Shown piece after piece: positions 19,288 through 52,813 of a stretch of 64,000 bases of DNA; the stretch's first letter is position 1, and each line of letters opens with the position of its first letter. The notes beneath the pieces were generated by a model. The model was not told the DNA's origin. It did not search any database and saw only the letters and a list, made by a program, of their open reading frames with translations. This DNA comes from a virus. Location of the stretch: positions 25,530-89,529 of IMG/VR virus record IMGVR_UViG_3300036770_003326, one strand, 5' to 3'. The translations under genes were made by a program, and so were the position numbers.

Positions 19288-19536
19288 ATGAAATATACTG
19301 TAGAATTTAGCAAGGAAGTAACCAAGGATTGGGGTACTAGTTTTATTAGCAAGCTCGTGTTGCCTGTAGTTGATAACGTATTAGGATGCGGTCGCAAGAC
19401 TACATACTACGTATGGGGCACCAAACAGCTCGAGGGTACCGTAGAACTCAACATCGACGAGTGGAATGTCGTGGAGAAGGAAGCGGTGATCAACGGAGAG
19501 ACGATGATGCTGAAGTACATCACGGGGCCACGGTAG
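19288..19536 (+). CDS. Hypothetical protein, GC-richer than the rest of the genome
   Basis: 82 aa; first ORF after the strand switch; followed by a cUUCGg hairpin. Confidence 0.6.
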   Translation: MKYTVEFSKEVTKDWGTSFISKLVLPVVDNVLGCGRKTTYYVWGTKQLEGTVELNIDEWNVVEKEAVINGETMMLKYITGPR

Positions 19537-19537
19537 T

Positions 19538-19557
19538 GGTCCCCCTTCGGGGGTCGA
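19538..19557 (+). other. Stable hairpin CCCC-TTCG-GGGG
   Basis: cUUCGg tetraloop directly after the stop codon; no U-tract. Confidence 0.6.
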
Positions 19558-20237
19558 TCTCAATGAGTAAAGCTATAAAGTCCTGTATAAAGAGGCCGTG
19601 ATACTGCGTAAACGTACAACAAAGTGAACAACGTAAAGTATTGACAATGAGATACATAGTCATATATGGTGTGGTTACTAACTCATCCTGGGCCGTAAAC
19701 CCTAACGCATAACTATGCGTGATTAGCCTATCATTATATATGTTATGGCTAAATGTATAATAAACAATTGTAGTAATAGAAGATACATCGTTTGTGTTGA
19801 GTATATCTCATGTAAATCTACCTATCTTTAAAAACCCCATGCTGAAATATAAGAACCAGTTGAATGTGGCTTTATTACAATTGTTTATATACTCTCATCC
19901 AATTGCAGGTAATGTGAGACTACCAGAAATGGGGTCCTGCTATAAATGTATCACATACTTCAAGGGTTGCAACCTTGTGAGAGTACAATATTGCAGGACA
20001 CAGCACTTTACAGGTGGGCAGTGTCCAACAAGAACTAATCAATTCTTGTATGGAAAAACTCTGTATTTGGTGAGTTATATTACTGTAAATAGTATAACAA
20101 ATCCAATATTTAAGCTTGATAAGCTACACAGTATATTGTGGTTTGAGTAAAAAGACAATAAGCCCTTTGTGGTGAACAGTATAACAAGGACTCTGAACAA
20201 ACCCTTGTAATCCTACTAATATACTAGTAGGTAGTAA

Positions 20238-20361
20238 TGCACCATTCCTGATTCCCAAGGTCAGGCAGTTGTAAGAACAAGATAGACCTATTTATAGGTA
20301 GAAGAGCTACAGTGATGTGGCAAGAATTAACTCTTAAGTCTTACAACTGAGTGCAGAGGGG
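20238..20361 (+). ncRNA. Candidate structured RNA (three-way junction with possible pseudoknot)
   Basis: Stems TGCAC/GTGCA, CCTGA/TCAGG and CAGTTGTAAGA/TCTTACAACTG, the last enclosing three hairpins; 3' GAGGGG complementary to loop TTCCC. Confidence 0.5.
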
Positions 20362-20406
20362 TATTTAACTTATAGAAACTTTACTTATTTATTTAAACAT
20401 AAACTT

Positions 20407-20631
20407 ATGACAAGAGCAGAAGCACTTAAAAAAACTAGAGAAAAATTTACTAATCTATTAGACGGTAAAGTTCTTCCTAATGCTACTATTACAGAAATTA
20501 TTTTATACTATGAAACATTAGTAGTAAAGAATATTGCACCAATAGTTAAATCAAACTCTGGTATAATAGATAATTTCCGTGAAGCAGAAATTCAACAATA
20601 TCAAGAAGATAACGATGAGTGGTATCATTAA
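20407..20631 (+). CDS. Hypothetical protein
   Basis: 74-aa ORF with AT-rich leader. Confidence 0.55.
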   Translation: MTRAEALKKTREKFTNLLDGKVLPNATITEIILYYETLVVKNIAPIVKSNSGIIDNFREAEIQQYQEDNDEWYH

Positions 20632-20859
20632 AATACCACTCTATTAAAACTATATAACTTATGAAATACTCTAAACTATTTATGTACATTACTATACTAG
20701 GTATAGTATCAGGATTATTATCAGCTTATCTAATGCTAGTAAAAAACAACCCTTCAATAAGTGCTTTACTAGCTACAACATCTTTTACTTTATTATTCAC
20801 AGGATCTATGCTAGACAATAAATCTAAATATAAAAATTAATTTACTAAATCTTATCTAA

Positions 20860-21051
20860 ATGAAAACTTTAATTGAATTTTGTATAGTACTAGTAATCAC
20901 ACTATTAACTTTTGGTATAGCTAGTTACACTAGTTTTAAATTTTCTAATAATCTCTTTATAATACTTTTTATTTCTTTTACAGTATCCTTTATAACTTCT
21001 ATAATATCTACTGAAATAATTATTAACTTAAAATATATAAATCATGATTAG
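20860..21051 (+). CDS. Small membrane protein
   Basis: Two hydrophobic segments. Confidence 0.5.
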   Translation: MKTLIEFCIVLVITLLTFGIASYTSFKFSNNLFIILFISFTVSFITSIISTEIIINLKYINHD

Positions 21052-21301
21052 TACTTTAAATCAAAACTCAACAGCAAAATCAAATGCTAACTTATTATTT
21101 CCTGAGCATATAGAAATCTCAGAGCGTGAGTTTTCTGATTATTATAATGCATTCTTATGCATGGACAGTAAATTTATTAGAGATAACATGTCTGTAATAA
21201 ATGAATCTGTATGGACTTTTAACTTTCATTATACTTTTTTCTGCGTTATACTAAATCCTGGATTATATAACGAAGAACTTTACATGGGTGTAATAAAATA
21301 A
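21044..21301 (+). CDS. Hypothetical protein
   Basis: 85-aa ORF followed by a hairpin. Confidence 0.55.
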   Translation: MISTLNQNSTAKSNANLLFPEHIEISEREFSDYYNAFLCMDSKFIRDNMSVINESVWTFNFHYTFFCVILNPGLYNEELYMGVIK

Positions 21302-21307
21302 GTCAGA

Positions 21308-21333
21308 AGAGCCCTGTAACAAGGGCTCTATTT
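21308..21333 (+). terminator. Intrinsic terminator-like hairpin
   Basis: agagccct / agggctct, then ATTT. Confidence 0.5.
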
Positions 21334-21397
21334 GATTAAGCTATAATAGGCTTAAAATAAATATATATTATATCATTTAATTTATTATATTTATATC

Positions 21398-21646
21398 ATG
21401 TTTGAAACTGTTAATATATTTACAATAAATATTAGTATAACTAAAACTAAGAATATACTATTAATAATATTTGCCGAGAATCTTACATCAATAGATGAAG
21501 TTAAAAGCTTTTATTTCAATAAATACAAACACTTACAAAAAGATCCTGATAAATTTAGTTTTATTCACAAAGGCAAATACTCTACTGACAGTAAGTATTT
21601 TGATCTAGCATGTGAAGGATTAAATTATTCCTGTACATTTTCTTAA
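21398..21646 (+). CDS. Hypothetical protein
   Basis: 82-aa ORF. Confidence 0.45.
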   Translation: MFETVNIFTINISITKTKNILLIIFAENLTSIDEVKSFYFNKYKHLQKDPDKFSFIHKGKYSTDSKYFDLACEGLNYSCTFS

Positions 21647-21651
21647 TCTTT

Positions 21652-21720
21652 GGTTTCTTAGTAAACTATTCTTTTTACTTACAATTTTTAGGATAGTTTA
21701 TTAAGAAACCTTTCTTTTTT
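21652..21720 (+). terminator. Long hairpin plus U-tract
   Basis: 21-bp arms (19/21 complementary) at 21652-21672 and 21690-21710, then TTTCTTTTTT. Confidence 0.65.
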
Positions 21721-21874
21721 ATTTACACGCTAATATTATTCTGCATCGTCGCAAAAAGAATAATGGGCACTGGATATAATATGCTTTAGTTATATCTAGT
21801 ATAGACTTTATAAGTCTGATCTATAAAGCACCTTAATTAATTTAATTTATAAACTTTTAAAAAATTTAAAAATC

Positions 21875-22390
21875 ATGGAAAAAAGAATCATTTTAGAATC
21901 AGCAAAAGGTGTTAAGAATAACAAAGTTCAATTGTGTTTTTCTCAAATAGTAGAAAGCTCTAAAACAAACACTAATGTATTAGGACTATTAAACGCATCT
22001 GATGAGCGTTTTACACAGTCTAAACCTCGTTATGCTTGGGTTACAGCAGAACCTAAAGATGTTAAAGCACAATTTGGTATTGATGTAGATAGTCTTAAAC
22101 AAGGTGATGTATTGGAAATAGGAGCTGTAGATCCAAGAATGGCATCATTCCCAGAAACAGCACTTAACATTCAAATTACCGAGACAACAGAAGGTAGTGA
22201 CTATGATGTACAAAACTTCGAGACTCGTGCTAAGAGAGCAGGTAAAGATGGTGATTTCATTATGAAAGACGGTTTGTATATCTATGTGAATACTACTGTT
22301 GTACCAGGTGAGCCTAAGCATGTTATCATTACTGATACTGAACGAGTATCTGCTAATGGATCTTCTTTGGCAAACTCTTTAGGAGTATAA
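21875..22390 (+). CDS. Hypothetical protein (likely highly expressed; possible ssDNA-binding)
   Basis: 171 aa, beta-rich, with its own terminator. Confidence 0.6.
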   Translation: MEKRIILESAKGVKNNKVQLCFSQIVESSKTNTNVLGLLNASDERFTQSKPRYAWVTAEPKDVKAQFGIDVDSLKQGDVLEIGAVDPRMASFPETALNIQITETTEGSDYDVQNFETRAKRAGKDGDFIMKDGLYIYVNTTVVPGEPKHVIITDTERVSANGSSLANSLGV

Positions 22391-22400
22391 TCTAACTATA

Positions 22401-22432
22401 AAACCAGGGTAAGTTGATTCTTGCCCTGGTTT
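22401..22432 (+). terminator. Terminator hairpin
   Basis: aaaccagggtaag / cttgccctggttt. Confidence 0.65.
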
Positions 22433-22462
22433 CTAATTATCTAACCTTTAAATCAGAATAAA

Positions 22463-22729
22463 ATGGAACAGAAACAGACAGCAGTAGAATGGTTGGTCCA
22501 ACAACTAAGAAATGGTAAGGAATTTAATGATGAATTAATCCAACAAGCCAAAGCAATGGAGAAAGAAGAAATAATGTATAGTGAGGAAGAAGTTTTAGAA
22601 ATACTACAAAAATGGTCAATGTATCAAGTTGACATAGAGTTGAATAAATTAAATATAAAAGAACTAAATGATGTGTTGAAAAAAACATTGTCATATAAAG
22701 AATGGTTTGGTCAAATCAAAAAGAAGTAA
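22463..22729 (+). CDS. TAVEWL-family small protein (chimeric C-terminus)
   Basis: QTAVEWL..QAKAMEKEE, then MYSEEEV...WFGQIKKK. Confidence 0.7.
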   Translation: MEQKQTAVEWLVQQLRNGKEFNDELIQQAKAMEKEEIMYSEEEVLEILQKWSMYQVDIELNKLNIKELNDVLKKTLSYKEWFGQIKKK

Positions 22730-22730
22730 T

Positions 22731-22793
22731 ATGGGAAAAGGATTAGACGTAGAAAAGTTTATGAAAGAAAAAGAAACCTTTAAATCAGAATAA
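22731..22793 (+). CDS. 20-aa micro-ORF ending TFKSE
   Basis: MGKGLDVEKFMKEKETFKSE*. Confidence 0.4.
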   Translation: MGKGLDVEKFMKEKETFKSE

Positions 22794-22794
22794 A

Positions 22795-23019
22795 ATGAAA
22801 ACAGCAGTAGAATGGTTGGTTGAAGAAATAAATAAACTAACTGGATTAACGATTCAAATGGATGAGCCAATAATTGAACAAGCTAAAGAAATGGAAAAAG
22901 AGCAGATAAAAAGTGCATTCACACAAGGTGATTTATTTGCAGAAGATTATTTTAACCCTGAAAAATCTAACATCGATTGTTCAGAAAATTACTACAACAA
23001 AACCTTTAAATCAGAATAA
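22795..23019 (+). CDS. TAVEWL-family small protein
   Basis: MKTAVEWL..QAKEMEKEQI..YYNKTFKSE. Confidence 0.75.
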   Translation: MKTAVEWLVEEINKLTGLTIQMDEPIIEQAKEMEKEQIKSAFTQGDLFAEDYFNPEKSNIDCSENYYNKTFKSE

Positions 23020-23107
23020 CGGTTTGCGGCTTTGCAATAGCCGCCAAAGAAGAATTTAATTATTAACCGAGAATTGTCAGGCGGCTATTGCAAAACCGCT
23101 GTTAGCC
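23014..23107 (+). mobile_element. attC-like site 1
   Basis: GAATAAC ... 20-bp arms (19/20) at 23026-45 and 23080-99 ... GTTAGCC. Confidence 0.6.
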
Positions 23108-23134
23108 GCTGGCCTTTCTCACAACTTTAAAACA

Positions 23135-23365
23135 ATGACAGCAAAAGAACAAGCAAGTAGTTTAGTTGAGTATTTTTGGACAGATGTTGAAGAGTTTAAA
23201 CAATACGAAACTATTAAAATGACAAAAGAAATGGCTAAAGATTGTGCCATAAAAGTAGCTGAAGAAGCTAAAATAGAAATAGGAAATTTTGATAGAACTG
23301 ATGGATTTGTCAAAACTCGTGAAGATTTTTGGGATGCTGTCATTGTCGAAATACGGTCTATGTAG
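23135..23365 (+). CDS. MTAKE-family small protein inside cassette 1
   Basis: Paralog of 25584..25793 (AKDCAIKVAEE / AKQCALVAVNE; FW..V..EI). Confidence 0.7.
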   Translation: MTAKEQASSLVEYFWTDVEEFKQYETIKMTKEMAKDCAIKVAEEAKIEIGNFDRTDGFVKTREDFWDAVIVEIRSM

Positions 23366-23371
23366 GCTTGC

Positions 23372-23494
23372 GGCTAACGTTCCGAGTATTTGCGTAGTGC
23401 CTATACTGAACTATATTGTAAAATACAAAACTTAAAAATATGCAGAAAAGATTATTAGAATTACGAAAGGCATTACGCAAATACTGTGTTATGT
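23372..23494 (+). mobile_element. attC-like site 2
   Basis: GGCTAAC ... 18-bp arms (17/18) at 23385-402 and 23468-85 ... GTTATGT. Confidence 0.65.
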
Positions 23495-23512
23495 GCCGTT
23501 TTTATTCAGATT

Positions 23513-23854
23513 ATGACAACGAAAGAGAAGATAATAAATCAAAGCATTGAGCAAGTTGAAAAGCAACTCAAAGAAATCAATTTGATACTTGAAGCTAATC
23601 CTTTAAGCGAGATATGTAAAATTAGACAAGAAGCACAAAAATTGCTCGATGAAAACAAAACTGTTGAGCAAAGAACGAGTGATGATTTTATTGCTAAAAT
23701 AGAAGCATTGTCTAAACGTGAAAAAGAGCAATTTGCATTAGCTGAAAAAGGCAAGGATAGTATAAAATTGATTGACGAAAAAGTCAAATTAGAGTTTGAG
23801 TTGTCAGACTTGCGAAATGAACTGTATCATATTGAACGTAGGCGCGTGTCTTAA
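23513..23854 (+). CDS. Coiled-coil protein inside cassette 2
   Basis: Start moved to ATG 23513 (MTTKEK) because the track start lies inside the attC-like site. Confidence 0.65.
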   Translation: MTTKEKIINQSIEQVEKQLKEINLILEANPLSEICKIRQEAQKLLDENKTVEQRTSDDFIAKIEALSKREKEQFALAEKGKDSIKLIDEKVKLEFELSDLRNELYHIERRRVS

Positions 23855-23860
23855 AATGGC

Positions 23861-23911
23861 ACATAACACCAAAGCAGGTGAAGTTTTAATTTCACTTGCT
23901 GACTGTTATCC
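23861..23911 (+). mobile_element. attC-like site 3 (short)
   Basis: ACATAAC ... agcaggtgaagtt / aatttcacttgct ... GTTATCC. Confidence 0.55.
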
Positions 23912-23955
23912 GCAGTTTTAATTGCGAAAGTTATTAACCTTTAAATCAGAATAAA

Positions 23956-24177
23956 ATGAAACAGACAGCCGTAGAATGGTTAGTTGAAAAATTTTCAACT
24001 CAAGGAACATTACATAGTTCAGATATATCACAAGCCAAAGCAATGGAGAAGGAGCAGATAATGGATGCAAGAGAAGATGGTCATTTATCTACATATGCAG
24101 AATATGGTTCAACTCCTAAATGTTACTTAGACGGAGGACATGAACAATACTACAACGAAACATTTAAATCAGAATAA
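23956..24177 (+). CDS. TAVEWL-family small protein
   Basis: MKQTAVEWL..QAKAMEKEQI..EQYYNETFKSE. Confidence 0.75.
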   Translation: MKQTAVEWLVEKFSTQGTLHSSDISQAKAMEKEQIMDAREDGHLSTYAEYGSTPKCYLDGGHEQYYNETFKSE

Positions 24178-24178
24178 G

Positions 24179-24376
24179 ATGGAACTATTTAAAAGTAAAT
24201 GGGGTCAATGGACAGACCTATCAACTACGGGGTATATGGGGTATAAATATTTACTTCAAGCAAGAAGGCATAAAGACGGAAGAATACAATACAGAGTAGA
24301 AAAAAGTAAGGATTGCTATACTTGCAACATTCCAACACTTGAACAATTAGAAAAAGTAACCTTTAAATCAGAATAA
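24179..24376 (+). CDS. Array hypothetical protein ending TFKSE
   Basis: Start placed at the repeat ATG 24179. Confidence 0.65.
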   Translation: MELFKSKWGQWTDLSTTGYMGYKYLLQARRHKDGRIQYRVEKSKDCYTCNIPTLEQLEKVTFKSE

Positions 24377-24377
24377 G

Positions 24378-24563
24378 ATGAAAACAATAAATGACTTTAT
24401 TAAAGAACTTCAAATGATTAGTGAAGAAAAAAGAAAATTACCATTGGTTGTTCAATGTCCAAATGGGGAAATAACATCACCAACAATTAAGATGATGTGG
24501 GATGAACCATTAATGATGTTTGAAAAAGAACCTGATAAAATGATTATTAGTTGGAGAGATTAA
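24378..24563 (+). CDS. Array hypothetical protein
   Basis: Runs from a repeat ATG to a stop overlapping the next repeat. Confidence 0.65.
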   Translation: MKTINDFIKELQMISEEKRKLPLVVQCPNGEITSPTIKMMWDEPLMMFEKEPDKMIISWRD

Positions 24564-24581
24564 CCTTTAAATCAGAATAGA

Positions 24582-24980
24582 ATGATAATACAAACAAGAA
24601 GGACTTATGATTTTATTGAAATAAAAGTTGATGAAATTAAAACTACAATTTTTAAAAGTGACATTAAGGAAATAAATGACACAATTGAAAATTTATTACA
24701 AGTAGTTGATGAATTAAAAACACTAAAAGAAAGACAAAAAAACAGAACTATGAAACAAACAGCAGTAGAATGGTTGGTTAACGAACTTAAAAACAATCAC
24801 GGTATAGATTTAAAATTATACAATGAGTTTGACAAAGCCAAAGAAATGGAGAAAAAGCAGAGAAAAAAAGACTTTGTTAATGGCTATAAATCAAGAGCCA
24901 AAGAAAGCAATTTAATTTTTGATGAAACCTCTGAAATGTATGCAATTAAATTATTTAACGAAACCTTTAAATCAGAATAG
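24582..24980 (+). CDS. Fusion of an unrelated ORF with a TAVEWL-family unit
   Basis: Internal MKQTAVEWL at ATG 24750. Confidence 0.65.
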   Translation: MIIQTRRTYDFIEIKVDEIKTTIFKSDIKEINDTIENLLQVVDELKTLKERQKNRTMKQTAVEWLVNELKNNHGIDLKLYNEFDKAKEMEKKQRKKDFVNGYKSRAKESNLIFDETSEMYAIKLFNETFKSE

Positions 24981-24981
24981 A

Positions 24982-25368
24982 ATGAAAGCAAATGAATTAA
25001 GAATAGGAAATTATGTTTATGATACTTTAGGTAAAGTAAATACCTATATTGTAAAAGAACCACATAATCAAGTTAAACCAATCCCGCTAACAGAAGAATG
25101 GTTGTTGAAGTTTGGATTTAAAAAATACCCTGACATTAGAGATACATTTCAACAAGTATATTATGATTCCTATCAACTTGAAATTGATAGATTTACTATT
25201 ATTTCATTTTCTATCCAACAAAACAATAAAAATTTGATTAAGTGTAATTATGATAGAGGTTATAGGTCAGAAGATAATAAAAAAAATTATTACATCAAAT
25301 ATCTTCATCAACTTCAAAACCTATACTTTGCACTTACAGGAGAAGAATTAACCTTTAAATCAGAATAG
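24982..25368 (+). CDS. YopX-like phage protein ending TFKSE
   Basis: MKANELRIGN...PIPLTEEWLLKFGF...HQLQNLYFALTGEEL; start at repeat ATG 24982. Confidence 0.65.
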   Translation: MKANELRIGNYVYDTLGKVNTYIVKEPHNQVKPIPLTEEWLLKFGFKKYPDIRDTFQQVYYDSYQLEIDRFTIISFSIQQNNKNLIKCNYDRGYRSEDNKKNYYIKYLHQLQNLYFALTGEELTFKSE

Positions 25369-25369
25369 A

Positions 25370-25582
25370 ATGAAAACAATAACAAAATCAGTAATTAAGT
25401 TGTCGGATATTCCACAGCATTTACAACAAAATGTAGCATTACAAGGACATAAAATACATACTTATGCAGAGTTTCACATTGATAATTCAGAACAAGATGA
25501 TTTAACATTGTGGCTATTAAATAAACATCCTACATTAAAAAGGAAAATAAGTTTTTTAATTCATATTGATAAATCAGAATAG
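25370..25582 (+). CDS. Array hypothetical protein ending KSE
   Basis: Bounded by junction repeats. Confidence 0.65.
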   Translation: MKTITKSVIKLSDIPQHLQQNVALQGHKIHTYAEFHIDNSEQDDLTLWLLNKHPTLKRKISFLIHIDKSE

Positions 25583-25583
25583 A

Positions 25584-25793
25584 ATGACAGCAAAAGAAAA
25601 AGCAAATAGATTGTGCATTGATTTTTTAATGAACATTGATACAGATGATTGTGATTTTGGAATGAATAAAGAAATGGCAAAACAATGTGCATTGGTTGCA
25701 GTGAATGAAATACTTGAAAGTTTTATAATAACTATCCCTAAACATCAAACTGAGTTTTGGGAGCAAGTTAAACAAGAAATAATTAACCTTTAA
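25584..25793 (+). CDS. MTAKE-family small protein
   Basis: Start at repeat ATG 25584; paralog of 23135..23365. Confidence 0.7.
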   Translation: MTAKEKANRLCIDFLMNIDTDDCDFGMNKEMAKQCALVAVNEILESFIITIPKHQTEFWEQVKQEIINL

Positions 25794-25804
25794 ATTAGAA
25801 TAAG

Positions 25805-26047
25805 ATGACAGCAGTAGAAGAATTAATACATTTTATTAAAAATGATAGAATGCAAAGTACATACACAAAAGAACAAATATTGGAACTACTTAAATTTAAG
25901 TTAGAAAAAGAGAAAGAGCAGATGATTGAATTTGCTAAGTACACAGAATTTATTGATACAGATAAAAGTGATATGAACAAAGTAATAGACTTTTACTTAA
26001 CACTTGACGGAGAAGAATTTGTTGAAGAAACCTTTAAATCAGAATAA
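25805..26047 (+). CDS. Divergent TAVE-family protein ending TFKSE
   Basis: MTAVEEL...EKEKEQM...ETFKSE. Confidence 0.7.
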   Translation: MTAVEELIHFIKNDRMQSTYTKEQILELLKFKLEKEKEQMIEFAKYTEFIDTDKSDMNKVIDFYLTLDGEEFVEETFKSE

Positions 26048-26048
26048 G

Positions 26049-26250
26049 ATGGAAAACAGCAGTAGAATGGTTTCAAGAACAGTTTAATAAGTATTATGCT
26101 TTTTCAAAGGAAGAAATGCAAACATTTGATTGGATGTTTAACAAAGCCAAAGAAATGGAGAAAGAGCAGATAATAGATGCTTGTAAACAATGTTCTTATA
26201 GTTATGAAGAAGCAGAACAATACTACAACGAAACCTTTAAATCAGAATAA
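26049..26250 (+). pseudogene. Frameshifted TAVEWL-family unit
   Basis: ATG-G-AAAACAGCAGTAGAATGG has one extra G relative to the 22795 copy; the shifted frame reads KTAVEWF..KAKEMEKEQI..EQYYNETFKSE*. Confidence 0.7.
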
Positions 26251-26251
26251 G

Positions 26252-26329
26252 ATGATGATTGCAATTGTATTTTTCTTAATAGGAATAGTTGTTGGACTTA
26301 TAATGGGTTACAACATAATGAAAAAATAA
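26252..26329 (+). CDS. 25-aa single-TM micro-protein
   Basis: MMIAIVFFLIGIVVGLIMGYNIMKK*, exactly between two repeats. Confidence 0.55.
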   Translation: MMIAIVFFLIGIVVGLIMGYNIMKK

Positions 26330-26401
26330 TTAAATCAGAATAAGATGAAAGTAACATATAAATTTTCTTATTATACTTTAAACGCTTTAAACTAAAATAA
26401 A

Positions 26402-26596
26402 ATGAAACAATTTCTTTTATATACACTCTCCTGGATAAGCCAAAACTTGGCTGTACCATTTTGGGTAGTAGGACACGTTCATTTGAGTATTAATGTATAT
26501 GAAGATATTTACGAACTGCTAGCGTCATTTGGCATGAACGCAATTGTCCTAGCAGGATTTATTTACGATTATTTAAAACAAATAAAAAAATTATAG
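26402..26596 (+). CDS. Small membrane protein
   Basis: Hydrophobic 64-aa ORF. Confidence 0.55.
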   Translation: MKQFLLYTLSWISQNLAVPFWVVGHVHLSINVYEDIYELLASFGMNAIVLAGFIYDYLKQIKKL

Positions 26597-26736
26597 CATA
26601 TGAAATATGAATTTAGAATAATAAAATGGGATACACATTTTATGTTAATACCCACAATAGCAATAGTAAGAGAAGAAAATGGTGGTATAGGGATATCTTT
26701 AGTATGGTTTAATAGGGCAATAGAATTTATTGTGGG

Positions 26737-26976
26737 ATGACAGAAGAATTTGTAAATAGAGCCATTGATAAATTATTTATTATAAATAATAATTCTTTAG
26801 TCATACAAGAATTTAGTATTTATTTAGAATATAAGACTTGGTTTATAAAAACCCTTAAAAAACATAATAGTACTTATACTAAAAGAGATTTACTAAGAAT
26901 TTGGAGTGAATTTGAAGAAAAATATATTATAATCCTTAAAATTAAAAATCATGAATATACCTATGAACAAGAATAG
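26737..26976 (+). CDS. Hypothetical protein
   Basis: 79-aa ORF. Confidence 0.45.
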   Translation: MTEEFVNRAIDKLFIINNNSLVIQEFSIYLEYKTWFIKTLKKHNSTYTKRDLLRIWSEFEEKYIIILKIKNHEYTYEQE

Positions 26977-27089
26977 TTCCCCTAAAACCTTACCTGAAAT
27001 AATATCCTATTGGAAAGGATTTAAAGGGAATAGTTTTAATATTGATTTATACATAAAAATATGCTTGGCTAAAGCTAAATTAATAAATC

Positions 27090-27356
27090 ATGAAAAAAAC
27101 TGAACAGCTTACTAGAGTAAGATTAGACGAACTAAGTTTATATCTACAAACAATATATCAGCAGTATGGCAAAAAAACTAATCAAGAATATGCTGATTTA
27201 GTGCAGCATCATTTTAAAGTAGAATGTAGTACTCAAGATATAGAATTTATAGAAGACTTAGAGCACCACAAAAAACAATTAGATTATGAACTAATATCCA
27301 GAAGAGAAGAATATTTTAGATCTCAAGGATTATCAAACTTTTTAGATTATGAGTAA
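27090..27356 (+). CDS. Hypothetical protein
   Basis: 88-aa ORF coupled to the next gene. Confidence 0.55.
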   Translation: MKKTEQLTRVRLDELSLYLQTIYQQYGKKTNQEYADLVQHHFKVECSTQDIEFIEDLEHHKKQLDYELISRREEYFRSQGLSNFLDYE

Positions 27357-27597
27357 TAGTGTAATACAAGAAATTATCACAAGATTAGAAACAGAGTATG
27401 ATAAAGCTCACAGTGTTGAATCTAAAAGTATATTAGCATATCTAACAGGGCTGTTAAAAAATAATTATGTTATTAAAGAAAAAAATCTTTTAGAAAAATT
27501 TTACATTAAAGGCATAATGCAGAGTATAGATAGTTTTGAAAATGATACTATTTTAAAATCTTTTGACGATCTTTATAATCAAGAAAACTTAACATGA
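27349..27597 (+). CDS. Hypothetical protein
   Basis: 82-aa ORF. Confidence 0.55.
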   Translation: MSNSVIQEIITRLETEYDKAHSVESKSILAYLTGLLKNNYVIKEKNLLEKFYIKGIMQSIDSFENDTILKSFDDLYNQENLT

Positions 27598-27809
27598 TGA
27601 AAGATAGTTTATTATTATTAGCAGCCGTAGCTATATGGACATACATGGGTATGTATGGCTATATTTATTGGACACAAAAAACCAATGATTATTTACACAG
27701 AAAATGGAGAAGGGATGAGATAAAATTAATACCTATAATGGGAATTTTAGGTATTTTTTCTTATGTAGTGGGGCATATTATTTTTAATAACAACAAATAT
27801 AAAAACTAA
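27594..27809 (+). CDS. Small membrane protein
   Basis: Two hydrophobic segments. Confidence 0.5.
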   Translation: MMKDSLLLLAAVAIWTYMGMYGYIYWTQKTNDYLHRKWRRDEIKLIPIMGILGIFSYVVGHIIFNNNKYKN

Positions 27810-28022
27810 AAAAAAAAATTATGGAGAATTACAAAATAGTAGAAAATGCACATGGTTCTTTTAACATTAAAAAAAGAACATTATTATTCTTTTGGAAATA
27901 TTTACCGCATCCAAAATATTCTAACGTAATATGGCATAGTAAGACTCGTAGAGGCGCACAAGCTTATATTAACTTACTAGTTAAAAAATAGATAATTATT
28001 ATCTGTAAAATCTTAAATTAAT

Positions 28023-29777
28023 ATGATTTATTTAGTAACTAACCAACGGAGTTTATTTAATTCCGTTGGTTATATTATATGTGATGTAGAAGAATCTTTA
28101 AAATATTTAAATAACCTTGATATAATAGCAGTCGATACAGAAACTATGGGTATGGATCCCTATACTTGTAATTTAGTTTCTTTGCAATTAGGCGATAACG
28201 ACAAGCAATATGTAATAGATGTTAATACAGTAGATATCAAAGTATATAAAGAATTACTTGAGAGTAAAACACTAATATTTCATAATGCAAAATTTGATTT
28301 AAGGTTTTTATATCATCATAATATAGTACCAAAGAAAATATTTGATACTTTTTTAGTAGAAAGAATATTGTTTACGGGCATAGACTCTGCAAGAAAATCT
28401 TTAGATGCTGTAGTGCATAAATACTGCAAAATAGAACTTGATAAAACTGTTCGCGGTGCCATTCACAGAGAAGGTTTGAGTACAAGAGTAATAAAATATG
28501 CTGCTTACGATGTAAAGTTTCTTCATGAAGTAATGAGAAAACAACAAGTATTTCTACAAGAACATAACTTAACTCGTACTGCTAGTTTAGACAATGAATT
28601 TGTTAAAGTTCTAGCTTATATAGAGTATTGTGGTTTTTATCTAAATCCTAAAGATTGGCAAAAAAAGTGCGAAGAAGACTTGAAAGATCTAAACGTCATA
28701 AAAGCACAATTGGATCAATTTATTCTAGATAATCCTGAAAAATATAGCAAGTATATAGACAATCAATTAAGTTTATTTGACGAAGGAACAAAATGTAAAT
28801 TAAACTGGGCTTCTTCTCATCAAGTAATTCCTTTTATGCAAAGTCTAGGTGTTGATACTCTTACTAAAGATAAACAAACAGGCTTATCTAAACATTCTGT
28901 AGATAAAAAAGTAATAGGGCCACAAAAGAAAAAACATCCTATTATTAAAACTTATATAGAATTTACTGAGCATCAAAAAGTTGTAAGTACTTATGGTGAA
29001 AATTGGTTTAATTATATTAATCCTGTTACTAAACGTGTACATAGCAATTATCAGCAAATTATGAATACTGGTAGATTATCTAGTGGTCAAAAAGGAGATA
29101 GAAAGAAAAACTTACCACAATTGCCTAATATGCAAAATATACCTAGTGATTCTAGAACTAGATCATGTTTTCAAGCACAAAAAGGTAACAAACTTATAGT
29201 GAGTGACTATTCTGGCCAAGAACAAATAGTATTGGCTAATAAGAGTTTGGATCCTGACTTGTTATATTTTTATTCTCAAGGTCTTGGAGATATGCATAGT
29301 TTTGTTGCAAGTAAAATATTTCCTGAGCTTAGTAATTTAACTCTTGATGAGATTAAAAACAACCACAAAGACAAACGACAGATTGCTAAAGGTGCTGGTT
29401 TTGCGATAAATTATGGTGGTACTGGAATTACTATTTCTCAAAATCTTTCTATTTCTATGGAAGAAGGCGAAAAAGTATATCAAGAATATTTTAAAGCATT
29501 TCCTGGATTAGCTAATTATTTTAAACAAGAAAAACAAAAGGCTTTAAAACTAGGCTATATAGAGTTTAATAATATTAGCAACCGTAAATGTTTTATAGAT
29601 TATTTTCAAGACTTTACTAGATTGCACAATGATATTTATAATACAGAAGGTTTTTGGGAAAATTACAAACACGAAAAAGAAAATAATACTGAAAAATTTA
29701 AATTGTTCTATAAACCCAAAGTACGTGAATATTTTATGAAAAAAGGTGATATTGAACGTATGTCACTTAATTATCCT
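28023..29777 (+). CDS. polA: DNA polymerase family A, exon 1
   Basis: 3'-5' exonuclease motifs DTET, HNAKFD, YAAYD; TGRLSS; motif A DYSGQE; motif B RQIAKGAGFAINYG; ends at NYP. Confidence 0.93.
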
Positions 29778-30619
29778 AAATGAATGGGACCTTACTCAGT
29801 GATGAGTATTGCAAACTCCGTGAATTGCTGGAAGGCTAAGGGCACGTCCGCCTATGCTAATCAGCAGCCAAGACTACTAGGAATAGTAGTAAGGTTCAGA
29901 GACTAGGTTATGGAGACCAGAACGGTCGGTAAAAACCCACGAGTGCGGAGCATCTTTAATTAATTATCCAAATAAACTATTAGGATAATTAAAACAATTT
30001 AAGTATTTTTGCTAAAATATTAAAACTATGATAGCAAAAAAATGTAGTAAATGCCAAAAAGTACTTCCTATAGAAGAATTTTATAAATATGCCAAAAGTA
30101 AAGACGGGTTAACACATCATTGTCAGCATTGTTATAGAAAATATAGGAAAGAAAAACAAGAACATTATCGTCAATATATGGAAAATCGTAGAAAAACTGA
30201 TAATGAACGTGTCAAACAAATGAAAAATAAGTCTTGGCAAAATTTAGATCCTAGGAAAAAAATGTTACAACAAGTTAAAAATCGTTGTAATAGAAAAAAC
30301 TTAGAATTTAATTTAGAATTAGAAGATATTATTTTACCGCCAGTATGTCCATTATTAGAAATACCTTTTGTTGTAGGTACTAGAGATAATTATGAACACA
30401 CATATAGTTTAGATAGGATAGACTCTTCTAAAGGATATATTAAAGGTAATGTTTGGGTAATTACAAAGTTGGCAAATTCTATGAAAAACTCTGCTTCTAA
30501 AGAAGAGTTAGTAGTTTTTGCTAAAAACATATTTAAATATTTTAAAGATGATGATATAGTCCGAACTGTATAGAAATATACAGAAATATGAGATAAAGAG
30601 CTCATATAGTAACAAATTG
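29778..30619 (+). mobile_element. Group I self-splicing intron in polA
   Basis: Exon ends in U and intron ends in G; splicing restores NYP|IQG; core elements AATTGCTGGAA, AATCAGCAGC, GTTCAGAGACTA, GATATAGTCC; TGAAT pairs with 3' exon ATTCA (P10) and GGGA pairs with 5' exon TCCT (P1). Confidence 0.93.
30028..30573 (+). CDS. Intron-encoded homing endonuclease (Zn-finger plus HNH-like)
   Basis: CSKC...CQHC; CPLL; SLDRIDSSKGYIKGNVWVIT..AN.MKN. Confidence 0.85.
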   Translation: MIAKKCSKCQKVLPIEEFYKYAKSKDGLTHHCQHCYRKYRKEKQEHYRQYMENRRKTDNERVKQMKNKSWQNLDPRKKMLQQVKNRCNRKNLEFNLELEDIILPPVCPLLEIPFVVGTRDNYEHTYSLDRIDSSKGYIKGNVWVITKLANSMKNSASKEELVVFAKNIFKYFKDDDIVRTV

Positions 30620-30884: not shown

Positions 30885-31277
30885 ATGGAAAAAGATATAA
30901 ATTTTAACGAGTTTGATGTATTAATAAATAACTACGAGAAGAAAATAGAAATATTGAAAAAATGTAAATACTATTACAATTATTTTAAAAAAGTAAAAAA
31001 TTCTAAAAATAGTTACTTAGTAGAATTGCGCACTAAAATAGGTAAAGAATTATATGATATGGGTGCTAGTCTTACTGAAGTAGGCAAAGCAATTGGAAGA
31101 AATCATTGTACTGTAATACATAATAGAAAAACAAGTGCTCATAGGTATATAGAAGATATAGTAGAAGAAAATGCTCATTACTGGATAGAAAATAATTTGT
31201 ATCCAAGTACTTTAAGTGTGAAAAAATACAATCAACCTTATAAAGTAACTTTTAAATTAGTAAAAAAAGATGACTAG
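30885..31277 (+). CDS. DnaA C-terminal-like HTH protein
   Basis: SLTEVGKAIGRNHCTVIH resembles DnaA domain IV SL..IG..FG.RDHTTV.H. Confidence 0.6.
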   Translation: MEKDINFNEFDVLINNYEKKIEILKKCKYYYNYFKKVKNSKNSYLVELRTKIGKELYDMGASLTEVGKAIGRNHCTVIHNRKTSAHRYIEDIVEENAHYWIENNLYPSTLSVKKYNQPYKVTFKLVKKDD

Positions 31278-34874: not shown

Positions 34875-35549
34875 ATGGCACAATTAGTATTCCTGGTTGG
34901 AAAATCGGGTATGGGTAAATCTACCTCATTGAGAAACCTAAACCCTGATGAAACTGTAATTATCAACACTGATCAAAAAGCGTTGCCTTTCAAACAGTTT
35001 AATCTAAAATATAATGAGGAAAGAAAGAATTACAAAAAGACTTCTGATGCTGTAGAAGTCTATAAAGTACTGAACAAAGTAAACAGCATGGAAAATGTTA
35101 AAACTGTTGTAATAGATACTTGGTCAAGAATTATGACTGACGCTATTATGTCACAAAGTTTTCGTGCAGAAAAAGGCTTTGATAAATGGTCTAAGATGGC
35201 CGCTAATCAATATGATTTAATTAATTATATTAACGACGGTATGAGAGATGATATAATAGTATATCTAATGGCTCATCCTGAAACTCATTTTGATGAAAAC
35301 GGCTTTTCTACTGAACGTATTGGCGTACAAGGTAAAATGCTTGAGCGTTTTGTGCCAGAAAGTTTTAGTACCATAGTACTTTATGCAGAAATTATCAAAC
35401 AGCCTGGACAAGCTAACAAACATGTATTTAGAACTGTATCTTCAGGTTCTGATACTTGTAAAACGCCTTTAGAAATGTTTGAAACAGACAGTGTAGAAAA
35501 TGATTTATTACTTGTAAATCAAAAAATTAGAGAATATTATTCAATTTAA
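34875..35549 (+). CDS. AAA-type P-loop ATPase (Sak4/AAA_24-like)
   Basis: GKSGMGKSTS, VVIDT, C-terminal KTP..MF. Confidence 0.8.
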   Translation: MAQLVFLVGKSGMGKSTSLRNLNPDETVIINTDQKALPFKQFNLKYNEERKNYKKTSDAVEVYKVLNKVNSMENVKTVVIDTWSRIMTDAIMSQSFRAEKGFDKWSKMAANQYDLINYINDGMRDDIIVYLMAHPETHFDENGFSTERIGVQGKMLERFVPESFSTIVLYAEIIKQPGQANKHVFRTVSSGSDTCKTPLEMFETDSVENDLLLVNQKIREYYSI

Positions 35550-41824: not shown

Positions 41825-42319
41825 ATGGTGAGTGAGATAAAACTAGAGTTTCCCGAATTTATCACGCATATACCACAAAGTAAAAACGTATGGGTTAAAA
41901 TAGGTTATAATAAAATTCATGCTTCTGTGCATTATACAACTAGAGCGGCTCTTGTGGCCGCTATGCACGGTTATATTGAAAAAAATATTCCTGAAAATCT
42001 TAGTATTCAAGCACCAATTGAAACTAAGCTAACTGTATATGCGCCTATAAACTTTGGTAGTATGAAAATGGTAAAAGATAAAACTACTGGTAAGAGAAGA
42101 ACGAGTTGGACTCCTGCAGCTCCTGGGTATAAACCTAATTGGGATATAGGAAATTTAGCATTAATATGGATTAAAGCTTTAGACGACGTATTAATTAAAA
42201 AAGGAATACTTCCAGATGATACTGTTGAATTTCTAAGAAGAACTACTTATGAGTTTATTCCTGTAAGTAATTTTAAAGATAGAAAATTAGTCTACAAATT
42301 AAAAAGTATAAAAAGATGA
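41825..42319 (+). CDS. RusA-like Holliday junction resolvase
   Basis: WDIGN...KALDDVL..GILPDD. Confidence 0.65.
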   Translation: MVSEIKLEFPEFITHIPQSKNVWVKIGYNKIHASVHYTTRAALVAAMHGYIEKNIPENLSIQAPIETKLTVYAPINFGSMKMVKDKTTGKRRTSWTPAAPGYKPNWDIGNLALIWIKALDDVLIKKGILPDDTVEFLRRTTYEFIPVSNFKDRKLVYKLKSIKR

Positions 42320-43353
42320 GTAATTATAAAGACATACAAGCGCTCAATCAGAGTATCTTAAAGAAAATATTATACAGTCCTGCAGAATTTAAAAAAGCTC
42401 AAGAACGACAAAACAACGAAGAATCTAGCCAAGATCATTTTGTATTTGGTACAATGGTAGATATAATGTTAACAGGTACTCGAGCAGAATTTGATGAAAA
42501 ATTTATTAAAATATCCGAAGATTCTTATCCTAGTGAAACTATTGAAAAAATAGTAAGAGGTGTTTTTGATGAAATTCTAACAGAGCATCAAGAAGATATT
42601 AATTTTTTTCCTTTTAGTGCTTATACTGATAAGATTTTACAGCATTGCAAATATCAAAATTATTATAATAATTATAAAGATGAGACTAGAGTAAGCAAGA
42701 TACTTACTACTGGCACAGATTATTTTGAGTTATTACAAAATTCTGTAGGTAAAACTATAGTTACTGATATTGAGTATGCTAAAGCTGTAAATTGTGTAAT
42801 GGCCTTAAAATCTGATGATTTTACTAAAAAATATTCTGATAAAAATTATCCAAAACATTCTCCAGATGATTTAGAGTATTTAGATAAAGTAGTCATTATG
42901 TTTGAATATGAAGGCTTGCAATTTAAAGGTGAGTTAGATAGAGTTATGTTAGACCATGATAGAAAAGTAATTACTCCAATAGACTTTAAAACTACTAGTA
43001 AAAGTATTATTAGTTTTAAACATGAGTTTTGGAAATATCGTTATGATTTTCAAGCAGCAGTATATCGTTACGGGCTTACAAAACAAGATTTTATAGTGGA
43101 ACTAATGAAAAAAGGTTATGTAATGGATAATTTTCTATATATTGTAGTAGAAAAAGAATTGACTAACCCGCCAATGTGTTTTGAGGTAACTAAAGATATT
43201 ATTCATATAGGTCTTGCAGGTGGCAAAATAGAAAATACTTTTTATGAAGGATTTACACAAGCAGTAGAGAGATATATTTATGCTGAAAATAACAACAAAT
43301 GGCAGTATCCAAAAGAATATTATGTAAATAACGGCAGAATGAGTTTATTATGA
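42316..43353 (+). CDS. PD-(D/E)XK exonuclease (RecE/ExoVIII-like)
   Basis: FGT.VD, KGELD, IDFKTT, YDFQAAVY. Confidence 0.8.
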   Translation: MSNYKDIQALNQSILKKILYSPAEFKKAQERQNNEESSQDHFVFGTMVDIMLTGTRAEFDEKFIKISEDSYPSETIEKIVRGVFDEILTEHQEDINFFPFSAYTDKILQHCKYQNYYNNYKDETRVSKILTTGTDYFELLQNSVGKTIVTDIEYAKAVNCVMALKSDDFTKKYSDKNYPKHSPDDLEYLDKVVIMFEYEGLQFKGELDRVMLDHDRKVITPIDFKTTSKSIISFKHEFWKYRYDFQAAVYRYGLTKQDFIVELMKKGYVMDNFLYIVVEKELTNPPMCFEVTKDIIHIGLAGGKIENTFYEGFTQAVERYIYAENNNKWQYPKEYYVNNGRMSLL

Positions 43354-43991: not shown

Positions 43992-44471
43992 ATGGATTTT
44001 GATAATTTTTATAAATCCGATAAACTAAGATTTTATAAATTTTTTTTGAAAAGAGTTTTTGATAATGTAATAGCTGAAGATTTAACTCAAGATTTTTTTA
44101 TAAAAGTCTATTTAAATCTAGATAAATTTGATGATAATAAAGCTTTATGGGATGCCTGGTTATTTGTTATTGCTAGAAATATTTTAATAGATTACTATAG
44201 AAAAAATAAGTATTTATATAATTCTGTAAAAATAGATATAACTAGTATAGACTATCCTGTAGAGAATCATTTTAATGAAATGCTCGATGTATATAATAAA
44301 GAAATTAATAAAATAAGTAAGAAAAAAATAGATTGTTTTATTATGTTGTACGAAGGCTATAGTATAAAAGAAATTCAAAAAGCTTTTAATATATCAGAAG
44401 GAACTGTAAAAAGTAGAATATTTAAGTCTAGAGAAATTTTAAAAGAAAAACTAAAAGAATTTATAATATGA
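43992..44471 (+). CDS. ECF-type sigma-70 factor
   Basis: AEDLTQDFFIKV, WLFVIARNILIDYYRK, EGYSIKEI...ISEGTVKSRIFKSR. Confidence 0.85.
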   Translation: MDFDNFYKSDKLRFYKFFLKRVFDNVIAEDLTQDFFIKVYLNLDKFDDNKALWDAWLFVIARNILIDYYRKNKYLYNSVKIDITSIDYPVENHFNEMLDVYNKEINKISKKKIDCFIMLYEGYSIKEIQKAFNISEGTVKSRIFKSREILKEKLKEFII

Positions 44472-52802: not shown

Positions 52803-52813
52803 AATTATAAACT

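Follow-up and report, generated by a model that had tools for sequence, protein, structure and literature searches.

Modular theory (Susskind and Botstein; lambdoid boundary sequences) holds that short conserved sequences at gene borders act as the homology for exchange, and the lambdoid boundary examples are few, weakly conserved and debated. Linker-guided gene exchange is an old idea with few clean natural examples, the best one being the PeSL elements of T4-type phages, whose cassettes were reportedly also treated by Comeau et al. in 2014 (PMC4122927). PeSLs are short repeated motifs bordering small ORFans in hyperplastic early regions. They span the interval from the upstream stop codon to the downstream start codon, and close relatives differ through modular shuffling, in which recombination between copies reorders genes, removes them or brings in others (Arbiol et al. 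2010, PMC2839356). The start-associated sequences (SAS) of Cluster K mycobacteriophages are short asymmetric repeats of one orientation, located a few nucleotides ahead of the ATG at which non-structural genes from various families begin (Pope et al. 2011, PMC3203893). They sometimes hold the upstream stop codon, the host has next to none of them, and a translational function is presumed though unproven. These two systems are the closest analogues of the array described here, which was found in a 64,000-nt stretch of viral DNA (the window; bases 25530-89529 of the 89.5-kb IMG/VR record IMGVR_UViG_3300036770_003326, which is about 70% complete). In this array, small genes are joined by a repeat, AACCTTTAAATCAGAATA followed by two purines (RR) and ATG, that is present in 15 same-strand copies (12 full and 3 partial or degenerate) at 22443-26404 (+).

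The repeat is a real and striking feature, unpublished by the literature searched. It is, on balance, probably a portable signal that combines stops in all frames with a start lacking a Shine-Dalgarno (SD) sequence, its identical copies doubling as the homology for recombinational exchange of cassettes. One near-invariant 23-base joint occurs in at least 120 uncultured viral contigs of several phage families and stands before upwards of 100 unrelated small-gene families, and near-identical genomes part into different gene sets at its copies. Should the dual role prove true, it would show how SD-less phages of Bacteroidota make incoming genes expressible and exchangeable at once. It would also define an accessory-gene pool shared by crAss-like and other Flavobacteriia phages, whose genes probably serve host takeover or anti-defence, and it would provide a natural adaptor for engineering such phages.

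A window scan with the pattern AACCTTTAAATCAGAATARRATG and up to three mismatches gave 12 matches, all on the + strand, at 22443-26347. The shuffle expectation for the 23-mer count is 0.01, and a count of 12 was reached in 0 of 100 shuffles. No further 23-mer copy with three or fewer mismatches is present outside the array in the whole 89,529-base record, which agrees with the confinement of the repeat stated in a preliminary description of this DNA. Nine of the scanned copies are exact, namely copies 1 (22443-22465), 2 (22775-22797), 4 (23936-23958), 6 (24358-24380), 7 (24562-24584), 8 (24962-24984), 9 (25350-25372), 12 (26029-26051) and 13 (26232-26254). Copies 5 (24159-24181) and 11 (25785-25807) have one mismatch each, and copy 14 (26325-26347) has three. 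Copy 3 (23001-23018; record scan and reading) is an 18-mer, exact but lacking the ATG, and leads into a GC-rich palindrome and a motif-free block. Two extra copies were identified by reading the sequence: copy 10 (25564-25586), with a diverged head and an exact 17-nt tail (TAAATCAGAATAGAATG, 25570-25586), and the degenerate copy 15 (26382-26404). The preliminary description had listed 14 copies; the repeat itself stands and the count is 15. Copy 1 is the left breakpoint of the array, as seen in the alignment of relatives, and copy 15 is the right breakpoint, as seen in the alignment to the related contig L158. The spacing between copies is 57-1161 bp, mostly 200-450. A terminator-like hairpin with a weak T-run (22401-22432, +; DNA fold -11.3 kcal/mol, z -6.68), identical in the relatives L228 and L229, precedes copy 1, where the earlier description had placed a terminator. 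The ATG opens an ORF at 14 of the 15 copies, the exception being the ATG-less copy at 23001. As a correction to the earlier statement on the ORFs started by the ATG, the copy at 26029 opens an ORF of only 12 codons.

The anatomy of the motif provides both stops and a start. With the 18-mer numbered 0-17, the ATG lies at positions 20-22. Frame 1 reads ACC TTT AAA TCA GAA TAR (TFKSE and stop) and frame 0 reads AAC CTT TAA, which places the stops at positions 6-8 (TAA) and 16-18 (TAA or TAG). The ATG frame is free of stops unless a T precedes the motif (TTAACC). Upstream ORFs in the window end with TFKSE or KSE and a stop; others stop in the remaining two frames, at 24563, 25793 and 26329, as was noted before. 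In a census of 251 sites, drawn from the window and 133 fetched loci, each site was scored by its longest upstream ORF of at least 30 aa. Such an ORF was present at 189 sites, and the three stops were used 132, 33 and 24 times; the use of all three frames supports the earlier view that conservation lies at the nucleotide and not the peptide level. In L229 (reverse complement, about 2009-2380), the third-frame stop is lost through a T-to-C change at -1, so that a 57-aa cassette reads on across the motif and is fused to the next one, giving 123 aa. The ATG begins exactly 2 nt past the 18-mer at 189 of 230 sites, and 14 sites have no ATG. The string T_TTA_AAT in the motif was considered as a -1 frameshift heptamer and set aside, as no ORF arrangement needs one.

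In Flavobacterium johnsoniae, A residues at -3, -6, -12 and -13 promote initiation and ribosomes ignore the SD sequence (PMC6847099). The corresponding motif positions 17, 14, 8 and 7 are A in 229, 227, 230 and 229 of 230 sites, respectively, counts that are not independent of the collection of the loci, as the four positions lie inside the seeded core. The features of SD-less initiation regions of Bacteroidota (Baez et al. 2019), which are the four A residues, the lack of GGAGG and low structure, are all present as far as sequence rules can tell. The median predicted probability that the 23-mer is unpaired is 0.030 at the copies, compared with 0.0013 at all positions, and 11 of 12 copies lie above the regional median (percentile rank at least 0.71 for those 11). 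Other genes of the phage have the same A preferences with varied leaders. Translational coupling, as proposed in the preliminary description, would fit the geometry of the motif and the published Flavobacterium start-site rules. As mRNA, the repeat would end the incoming reading frame in any phase and would present an AUG 2 nt further on, in an unstructured SD-less context with A at the four positions. Any small gene behind it would thereby be translatable by Bacteroidota ribosomes, de novo or by re-initiation.

The placement of the motif resembles that of SAS, with ATG at +2 in 189 of 230 sites, 112 downstream families and occurrence in the early region only. SAS are 13 bp long, have an SD core (5'-GGGATAGGAGCCC), lie 3-7 bp from the start and belong to one phage cluster, and PMC3203893 makes no claim of gene exchange. 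In contrast, the motif is SD-less, has no AGGAG and holds stops in two to three frames; it is found across phage families, and homology breakpoints lie at it. The host also belongs to another phylum, and the motif is thus an analogue of SAS and not a member.

The gene content between the first and last copies was compared in relatives of the phage (capsid 90-96% and DNA polymerase 73-80% identical), in which both anchors are kept. Across 12 relatives the inter-anchor stretch ranges from 2.6 to 7.9 kb, and hardly any of its genes recur between them; 0-6 motif copies were counted in these relatives, and no junction word other than the motif is repeated. Two closer relatives were found in one metagenome scan as independent assemblies. 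L228 is 98.8% identical to window 20362-22476 (2,115 bp) and L229 is 93.9% identical to window 21086-22488 (1,407 bp). The window, L228 and L229 agree through the 18-mer of copy 1 and diverge from RR-ATG onward. Beyond this point L228 and L229 carry different arrays of 8 and 6 copies, respectively, with one 203-bp cassette in common (99.5%) that occupies a different place in each. On the right side, L158 shows 95.4% DNA identity over 26385-29410, is unrelated to the window upstream, and has a near-canonical copy where the window has the degenerate copy 15. No relative closer than L158 was obtained by a left-anchor protein search or a right-flank 26-mer search. The divergence of these three contigs at the first and last copies agrees with the earlier expectation that cassette content changes at the repeat.

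Variation of small genes between copies, from the 2.6-7.9 kb of the relatives to the divergence at copies 1 and 15, is shared with the PeSL regions. PeSLs differ in being composites of a sigma70-type promoter, a stem-loop terminator and an SD sequence, with about 50 variable copies per genome (PMC2839356). The motif is 23 nt long, has no stem-loop, no recognisable host promoter and no SD, and is near-identical across phage families; hairpins are found only before copy 1 and in the nested block after copy 3. Mini-circles have been shown physically for PeSLs, whereas the window array is known from assembled sequence alone.

Exchange of single units was identified among 303 alignments between motif-bearing loci (at least 85% identity and at least 120 bp). 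Nine of these are single cassettes, 86-100% identical, with the motif at both ends and unrelated flanks, for example 246 bp at 100% (L069/L105) and 229 bp at 95.6% (L028/L107). This pattern supports the exchange of repeat-bounded units that had been proposed. Internal alignment ends fell within the motif in 121 of 1368 cases, compared with 7.7 expected from its sequence share. Within the motif-collected loci, alignments stopped at 87 of 99 encounters with motif junctions (88%) and at 304 of 534 encounters with other tight small-gene junctions (57%). Cassette content in relatives changes at the repeat, as was expected, and small-gene junctions that lack it also show many mosaic breakpoints. In assembled Logan contigs and unitigs of four runs, a contig of run X4 from a different study is 99.5% identical over 24159-24585, which comprises two cassettes, and has different sequence past the copy at 24562. 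In the RNA library X16, one contig keeps 98% identity as far as 22471 and diverges beyond it, and the alignment of record 12 to the window begins at 26330; X16 was used for sequence breakpoints only, as its contigs show no starts or strand and DNA carry-over is possible.

As DNA, the identical copies of 23-45 bp would be the only homology between otherwise unrelated cassettes, and homologous recombination between copies would swap, add, delete and reorder whole cassettes. Homologous recombination explains the exchange most simply. The likely agents would be phage annealing protein/exonuclease pairs, such as a Sak4-like and a RecE-like protein, acting during co-infection. Sak4-type annealing proteins are reported to recombine short, diverged homologies (PMC5499656, PMC5928155, PMC3945230). 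The phage encodes a Sak4-like single-strand annealing protein (34875-35549, +; PHROG 2872, E 1.1e-64) and an exonuclease VIII/RecE-like protein (42316-43353, +; PHROG 412, E 4.3e-28), as the preliminary description stated, and these candidate drivers may act on the motif. Lambdoid linkers were likewise proposed as border homology for module exchange between phages; the present locus differs from them in its dense array, its one near-invariant sequence and its many documented unit exchanges.

Window 22795-23018 has 99.1% DNA identity to a copy in the unrelated contig L024, and the paralogs of the TAVEWL family in the window, to which this cassette belongs, are at most 52% identical to one another. 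The array therefore appears to have arisen by acquisition and not by tandem duplication, and the 'accordion' of local duplications in the preliminary description is not upheld. Duplication also enters a further explanation, which holds that the repeat is the 3' end of a duplicated TAVEWL family or an assembly chimera in which a word common to several phages joins their fragments. An ORF ending in YYNETFKSE and stop precedes about half of all sites, six cassettes of the window are related to TAVEWL, and breaks of Logan unitigs occur at several copies. This explanation is highly improbable in view of the 112 downstream families, the three stop frames used and the low identity of the paralogs. 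In runs X1 and X3, unitigs at 100% identity run through 11 of the 15 copies, with at least 20 nt beyond each side, at a depth of 34-43 compared with 37-49 in the flanks (zero-depth bins, e.g., 23138-23371 in X1, were not used as evidence), and the same architecture recurs in the independent assemblies L228 and L229. Runs X1 and X3 may be the source sample.

The exact 16-mer core is found in uncultured IMG/VR viral contigs (at least 120), and nearly all of its sites run on into NN-ATG. The downstream ORFs of at least 25 aa, 208 in number, fall into 112 families, the largest of which is TAVEWL with 29 members; the repeat thus joins unrelated genes, as was originally described. Gene order varies between loci, and most ORFs end within the next copy. 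Of the five large records with the motif, which measure 80-224 kb and include two that are at least 95% complete, none matched a query with the capsid protein of this phage, and four had no match to an RNA-polymerase-core query. The same two queries matched five of five true relatives, and the carriers are therefore not one phage group. A blastn search of the array against 50,697 GenBank phage records gave three short matches only (Cellulophaga phi10:1, Tenacibaculum JQ), and a 46-nt motif query against GenBank phages gave partial chance matches only, so that no cultured phage there carries the motif. A literature search with the motif string returned one unrelated mammalian match only, and a search for intergenic motifs of Flavobacterium phages and hyperplastic-region cassettes returned only the PeSL work and halovirus HF2.

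Bacterial genomes contain the exact 21-mer in 13 stretches, mostly of Bacteroidota or in small mis-binned contigs. The exact 23-mer occurs once per genome in three isolates, Flavobacterium calami, F. limi and F. pectinovorum. The host copy (L138 2349-2372; also L132 and L137) falls where one 2TM-domain gene meets a second in tandem; their chromosomal operon also includes, by ORF reading only, a putative membrane sensor kinase and a LytTR-type response regulator. Orthologous host junctions in the genus Flavobacterium are exact in 2 of 30 cases and differ in the rest at 4-14 of 18 positions. The motif was considered as a general host start site and rejected, as it has one copy per genome, always in the same operon, and the junction is unconserved in orthologues.

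These host junctions bear on the possibility that the repeat is a translation element only, a start or re-initiation region for Bacteroidota ribosomes. Exchange would then be incidental at any gene boundary, with the motif travelling along. The fixed spacing to the ATG, the presence of all four published A determinants and the predicted accessibility of the copies are expected of such an element, as are an exact copy at a host gene junction and the motif-like leaders, each with 4 mismatches to the 18-mer, at two core genes (a 431-aa structural-region ORF at 6492, -, and a helicase gene at 31270, +). These two leaders suggest a leader type in common use, of which the motif would be the extreme. 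Breakpoints at motif-less junctions and the homology to L024, which begins at the ATG without a shared motif, also agree with incidental exchange. Generic start selection, however, does not freeze 20 nt, as 28 of the 30 host orthologues have drifted, and other genes of the phage have varied leaders. The higher break frequency at motif junctions, the motif-flanked non-coding cassettes and the relatives that manage without the motif likewise count against translation as the sole role, which is accordingly rated as unlikely while retaining a real chance. A host junction under ordinary selection drifts and the phage copies do not, so that frequent exchange through the motif or a specific recogniser is needed.

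Several observations weigh against the combined role. The same hyperplastic region is motif-less in 13 of 22 related loci and has 1-3 copies in the rest; as most relatives are motif-less, early genes are expressed without the motif. Breakpoints are frequent without it, at the 57% of encounters given above. The L024 homology starts at the ATG with no shared upstream motif, which shows that the motif is not required for exchange. Translation alone fails to explain the letter-for-letter identity in the face of host-junction drift, and the proposed translational role rests on sequence rules from one host species. Most loci were collected by an exact 16-mer seed, and the identity of the core is thus partly by construction; independently or anchor-collected loci have copies with 1-4 mismatches and variant tails sharing the AACCTTTAAA head. 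No trustworthy deletion or circle joints were present in the contig-level read data, in which 15 of 116 joints were inspected. The sides of these 15 joints were 21-35 nt long and fit conserved TAVEWL blocks of other phages in the same samples, and they were not counted.

A promoter role has precedents in the T4 PeSLs and in the intergenic repeats of halovirus HF2, which are 58 and 29 bp long, stand upstream of many viral genes and carry promoters (PMC8707807). Under this explanation each cassette would receive a near-leaderless transcript from the host or virion RNA polymerase. A virion polymerase is a candidate, since residues 1638-2234 of a 3435-aa ORF (52814-63121, -) match residues 805-1391 of 6VR4 chain A (E 7e-28), which is the virion RNA polymerase (gp66) of the crAss-like Cellulophaga phage phi14:2. 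The 3435-aa protein had no match in Pfam or PHROGs, and the neighbouring 1439-aa ORF (48504-52823, -) matches a virion structural PHROG. The sequence match of this giant virion protein to gp66 and its structural neighbour indicate that the phage is crAss-like. The string TAAATCAG resembles the Flavobacterium -7 element TAHHTTTG and would place the transcript start 1-2 nt before the AUG. A single TAHHTTTG occurs on the + strand of 19500-28100, inside the ORF 23135-23365, and early-block promoters were not located otherwise. By a sequence test only, however, TAAATCAG agrees with four of the six near-invariant positions of the -7 element, T-7 and T-6 being absent, and no conserved upstream element accompanies it. 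Leaders are longer than 10 nt in 87% of F. johnsoniae transcripts, and phi14:2 early transcripts are reported to have no upstream motif in common (bioRxiv 10.1101/2020.03.07.982082). Four of the five large motif-bearing records, one of them 95% complete, have no detectable homologue of the virion polymerase. An X16 contig spans the anchor gene, the hairpin and the motif, which counts weakly against a promoter given possible DNA carry-over. In contrast to the HF2 repeats, a promoter role is quite improbable for the motif.

The letter-for-letter identity of the copies, beyond that of generic start sites, and their single orientation and restriction to the early region would also be expected of a recognition site for a specific factor. 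The factor could be a translational repressor or an RNase of early mRNAs like RegA or RegB of T4, a stoperator-type repressor that binds DNA, or a homing-type nuclease that copies cassettes from one co-infecting genome into another, and it may be encoded by TAVEWL, the commonest associated family (29 of 208 downstream ORFs). An endonuclease VII/HNH gene is present at 30028-30573. The motif is found in unrelated phages with no common candidate factor, however, and nothing ties the nuclease gene to it. TAVEWL is a small three-helix protein without a match in Pfam, PHROGs or the PDB, and several multi-copy loci show none. Recognition by such a factor is improbable.

In integrons, small and mostly promoterless cassettes line up in one orientation and their content varies between relatives, and the 15 copies on the + strand and the different arrays in L228 and L229 resemble them in this respect. 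The repeats, or the GC-rich palindromes of the block 23020-23935, would then be attC-like sites for a tyrosine recombinase. The palindromes are two inverted repeats, P1 (23026-23099; 20-nt arms 23026-23045/23080-23099, 95% complementary, fold z -3.78) and P2 (23385-23485; 18-nt arms, 94% complementary; inverted-repeat listing and fold). P1 and P2 flank the ORF 23135-23365 within the AT-rich array, and an inverted 9-nt pair, GTTAGCCGC/GCGGCTAAC, faces this ORF. The 'attC-like site' of the preliminary description is P1, and there is no integrase in the record: PF00589 had no match (E up to 0.01) in the about 70%-complete 89.5 kb, whereas the control matched 14 of 14 genomes. No adjacent tyrosine recombinase and no boundary that folds into a hairpin were found. 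The 23-mer has no inverted-repeat structure, its self-complementarity being only TTTAAA, and no inverted repeats pair near motif copies (I1 and I19 pair 3.1 and 5.5 kb away and are 73% and 83% complementary, respectively). The P1 arm sequence had 0 matches in the viral contig collection searched, and the breakpoints of relatives lie in the 23-mer and not in the palindromes. Unlike an attC site, the repeat lies partly within coding sequence and provides the stop codon of one gene and the start codon of the next. An integron-type mechanism has next to no chance, and the term 'integron-like' survives as an analogy only, for want of a tyrosine recombinase and an inverted-repeat structure.

Cassettes of the array need not encode protein, as two motif-flanked elements indicate. 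The non-coding hairpin element P3 (72 nt; 23864-23935, +) is 86-99% identical in four contigs (the window, L111, L051 and L037), with 98.6% identity to L111 2190-2261, and is a stand-alone cassette between two motif copies in L111. A 144-nt tRNA-like element was observed at L111 2420-2564 (also in L012 and L087), flanked by motifs, after a 2-codon ORF (ATG AAA TAG). Its D-arm is of the class II type, its T-arm is canonical and its acceptor stem has 7 bp. Default ARAGORN and Rfam gave nothing for it; with introns allowed, ARAGORN gave a weak tRNA-Phe(aaa) with a 63-nt intron, and the designation 'tRNA-like' was kept. An Rfam scan of 20500-28000 (E up to 1) gave only four sub-threshold chance matches. 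A broader extension of the dual role is plausible, if somewhat doubtful. The motif would be kept identical by its use as a community-wide connector, through which unrelated phages of the same freshwater Bacteroidota trade early accessory genes as units ready for expression, and even non-coding RNA cassettes, by double crossovers or mini-circles. It would form an integrase-free integron in function, run by annealing proteins, whose largest array seen so far would be that of a crAss-like phage.

The array lies between the conserved left anchor gene (21875-22390, +) and the DNA-polymerase module. The 171-aa product of the anchor gene has no family match and recurs in 22 related viral loci at 46-72% aa identity. 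The first cassette ORF (22463-22729, +; 88 aa, TAVEWL) has its own stop 45 nt before copy 2, and the second (22795-23019, +; 74 aa, TAVEWL) ends with TFKSE and a stop and is the one 99.1% identical to L024 over 224 bp. The block after copy 3 contains two ORFs without an upstream motif, one of 76 aa (23135-23365, +; PHROG 21441-like, a paralog of 25584-25793) and one of 113 aa without a family (23513-23854, +). The next cassette ORFs encode 73 aa (23956-24177, +; TAVEWL) and 65 aa (24179-24376, +; 74% aa identity to an L038 homologue), both ending with TFKSE and a stop, and 61 aa (24378-24563, +), with a third-frame stop at the TAA of TTAACC. Two larger cassette ORFs, which also end with TFKSE and a stop, encode 132 aa with TAVEWL in the C-terminal half (24582-24980, +) and 128 aa of PHROG 10066, of unknown function (24982-25368, +). 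The latter protein had been labelled 'YopX-like'; it matches only PHROG 10066 and has no Pfam match at E up to 0.01, and the downstream neighbours of this family differ in other loci. The remaining cassette ORFs encode 70 aa (25370-25582, +; ending with KSE and a stop), 69 aa (25584-25793, +; PHROG 21441, with its stop at the TAA within copy 11), 80 aa (25805-26047, +; ending with TFKSE and a stop) and a hydrophobic 25 aa (26252-26329, +). Between the last two lies a frameshifted TAVEWL paralog (26049-26250, +), which consists of the 12-codon ORF followed by 26116-26250 (44 aa, ending with TFKSE and a stop). It has one extra base just past the ATG, and an intact L013 homologue is 82% identical at the DNA level. 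The first gene of the conserved right flank (26402-26596, +; 64 aa) has 97% aa identity to L158.

The TAVEWL family had no match in Pfam or PHROGs, and its matches in Atlas are unnamed viral clusters only. The AlphaFold2 (AF2) model of the 73-aa member predicts three helices (pLDDT 75) and gave 0 Foldseek matches against the PDB at E up to 10. TAVEWL genes have three blocks conserved at the DNA level (the start, the middle QAKEMEKEQI and the end YYNETFKSE with the stop) around variable segments, and these blocks may be points of intragenic exchange. In run X4, record 28 shares the first and last blocks of a window TAVEWL paralog and has a different variable segment. In L079, a TAVEWL paralog is fused to the next ORF.

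Several independent assemblies (L047, L092, L038 and L158) start or stop a few bases from a motif copy or immediately beyond the array, and breaks of Logan unitigs at copies were mentioned above. The repeat evidently fragments metagenome assemblies of these phages, and its presence in the array explains why they break in this region. Elsewhere in the window, the portal, terminase and capsid genes lie on the - strand, and the + strand carries genes for the DNA polymerase, helicases, primase, RIIA/RIIB, the Sak4-like and exonuclease VIII-like proteins and endonuclease VII/HNH. The array opens this rightward early block. A sigma-factor-like ORF is located at 43992-44471.

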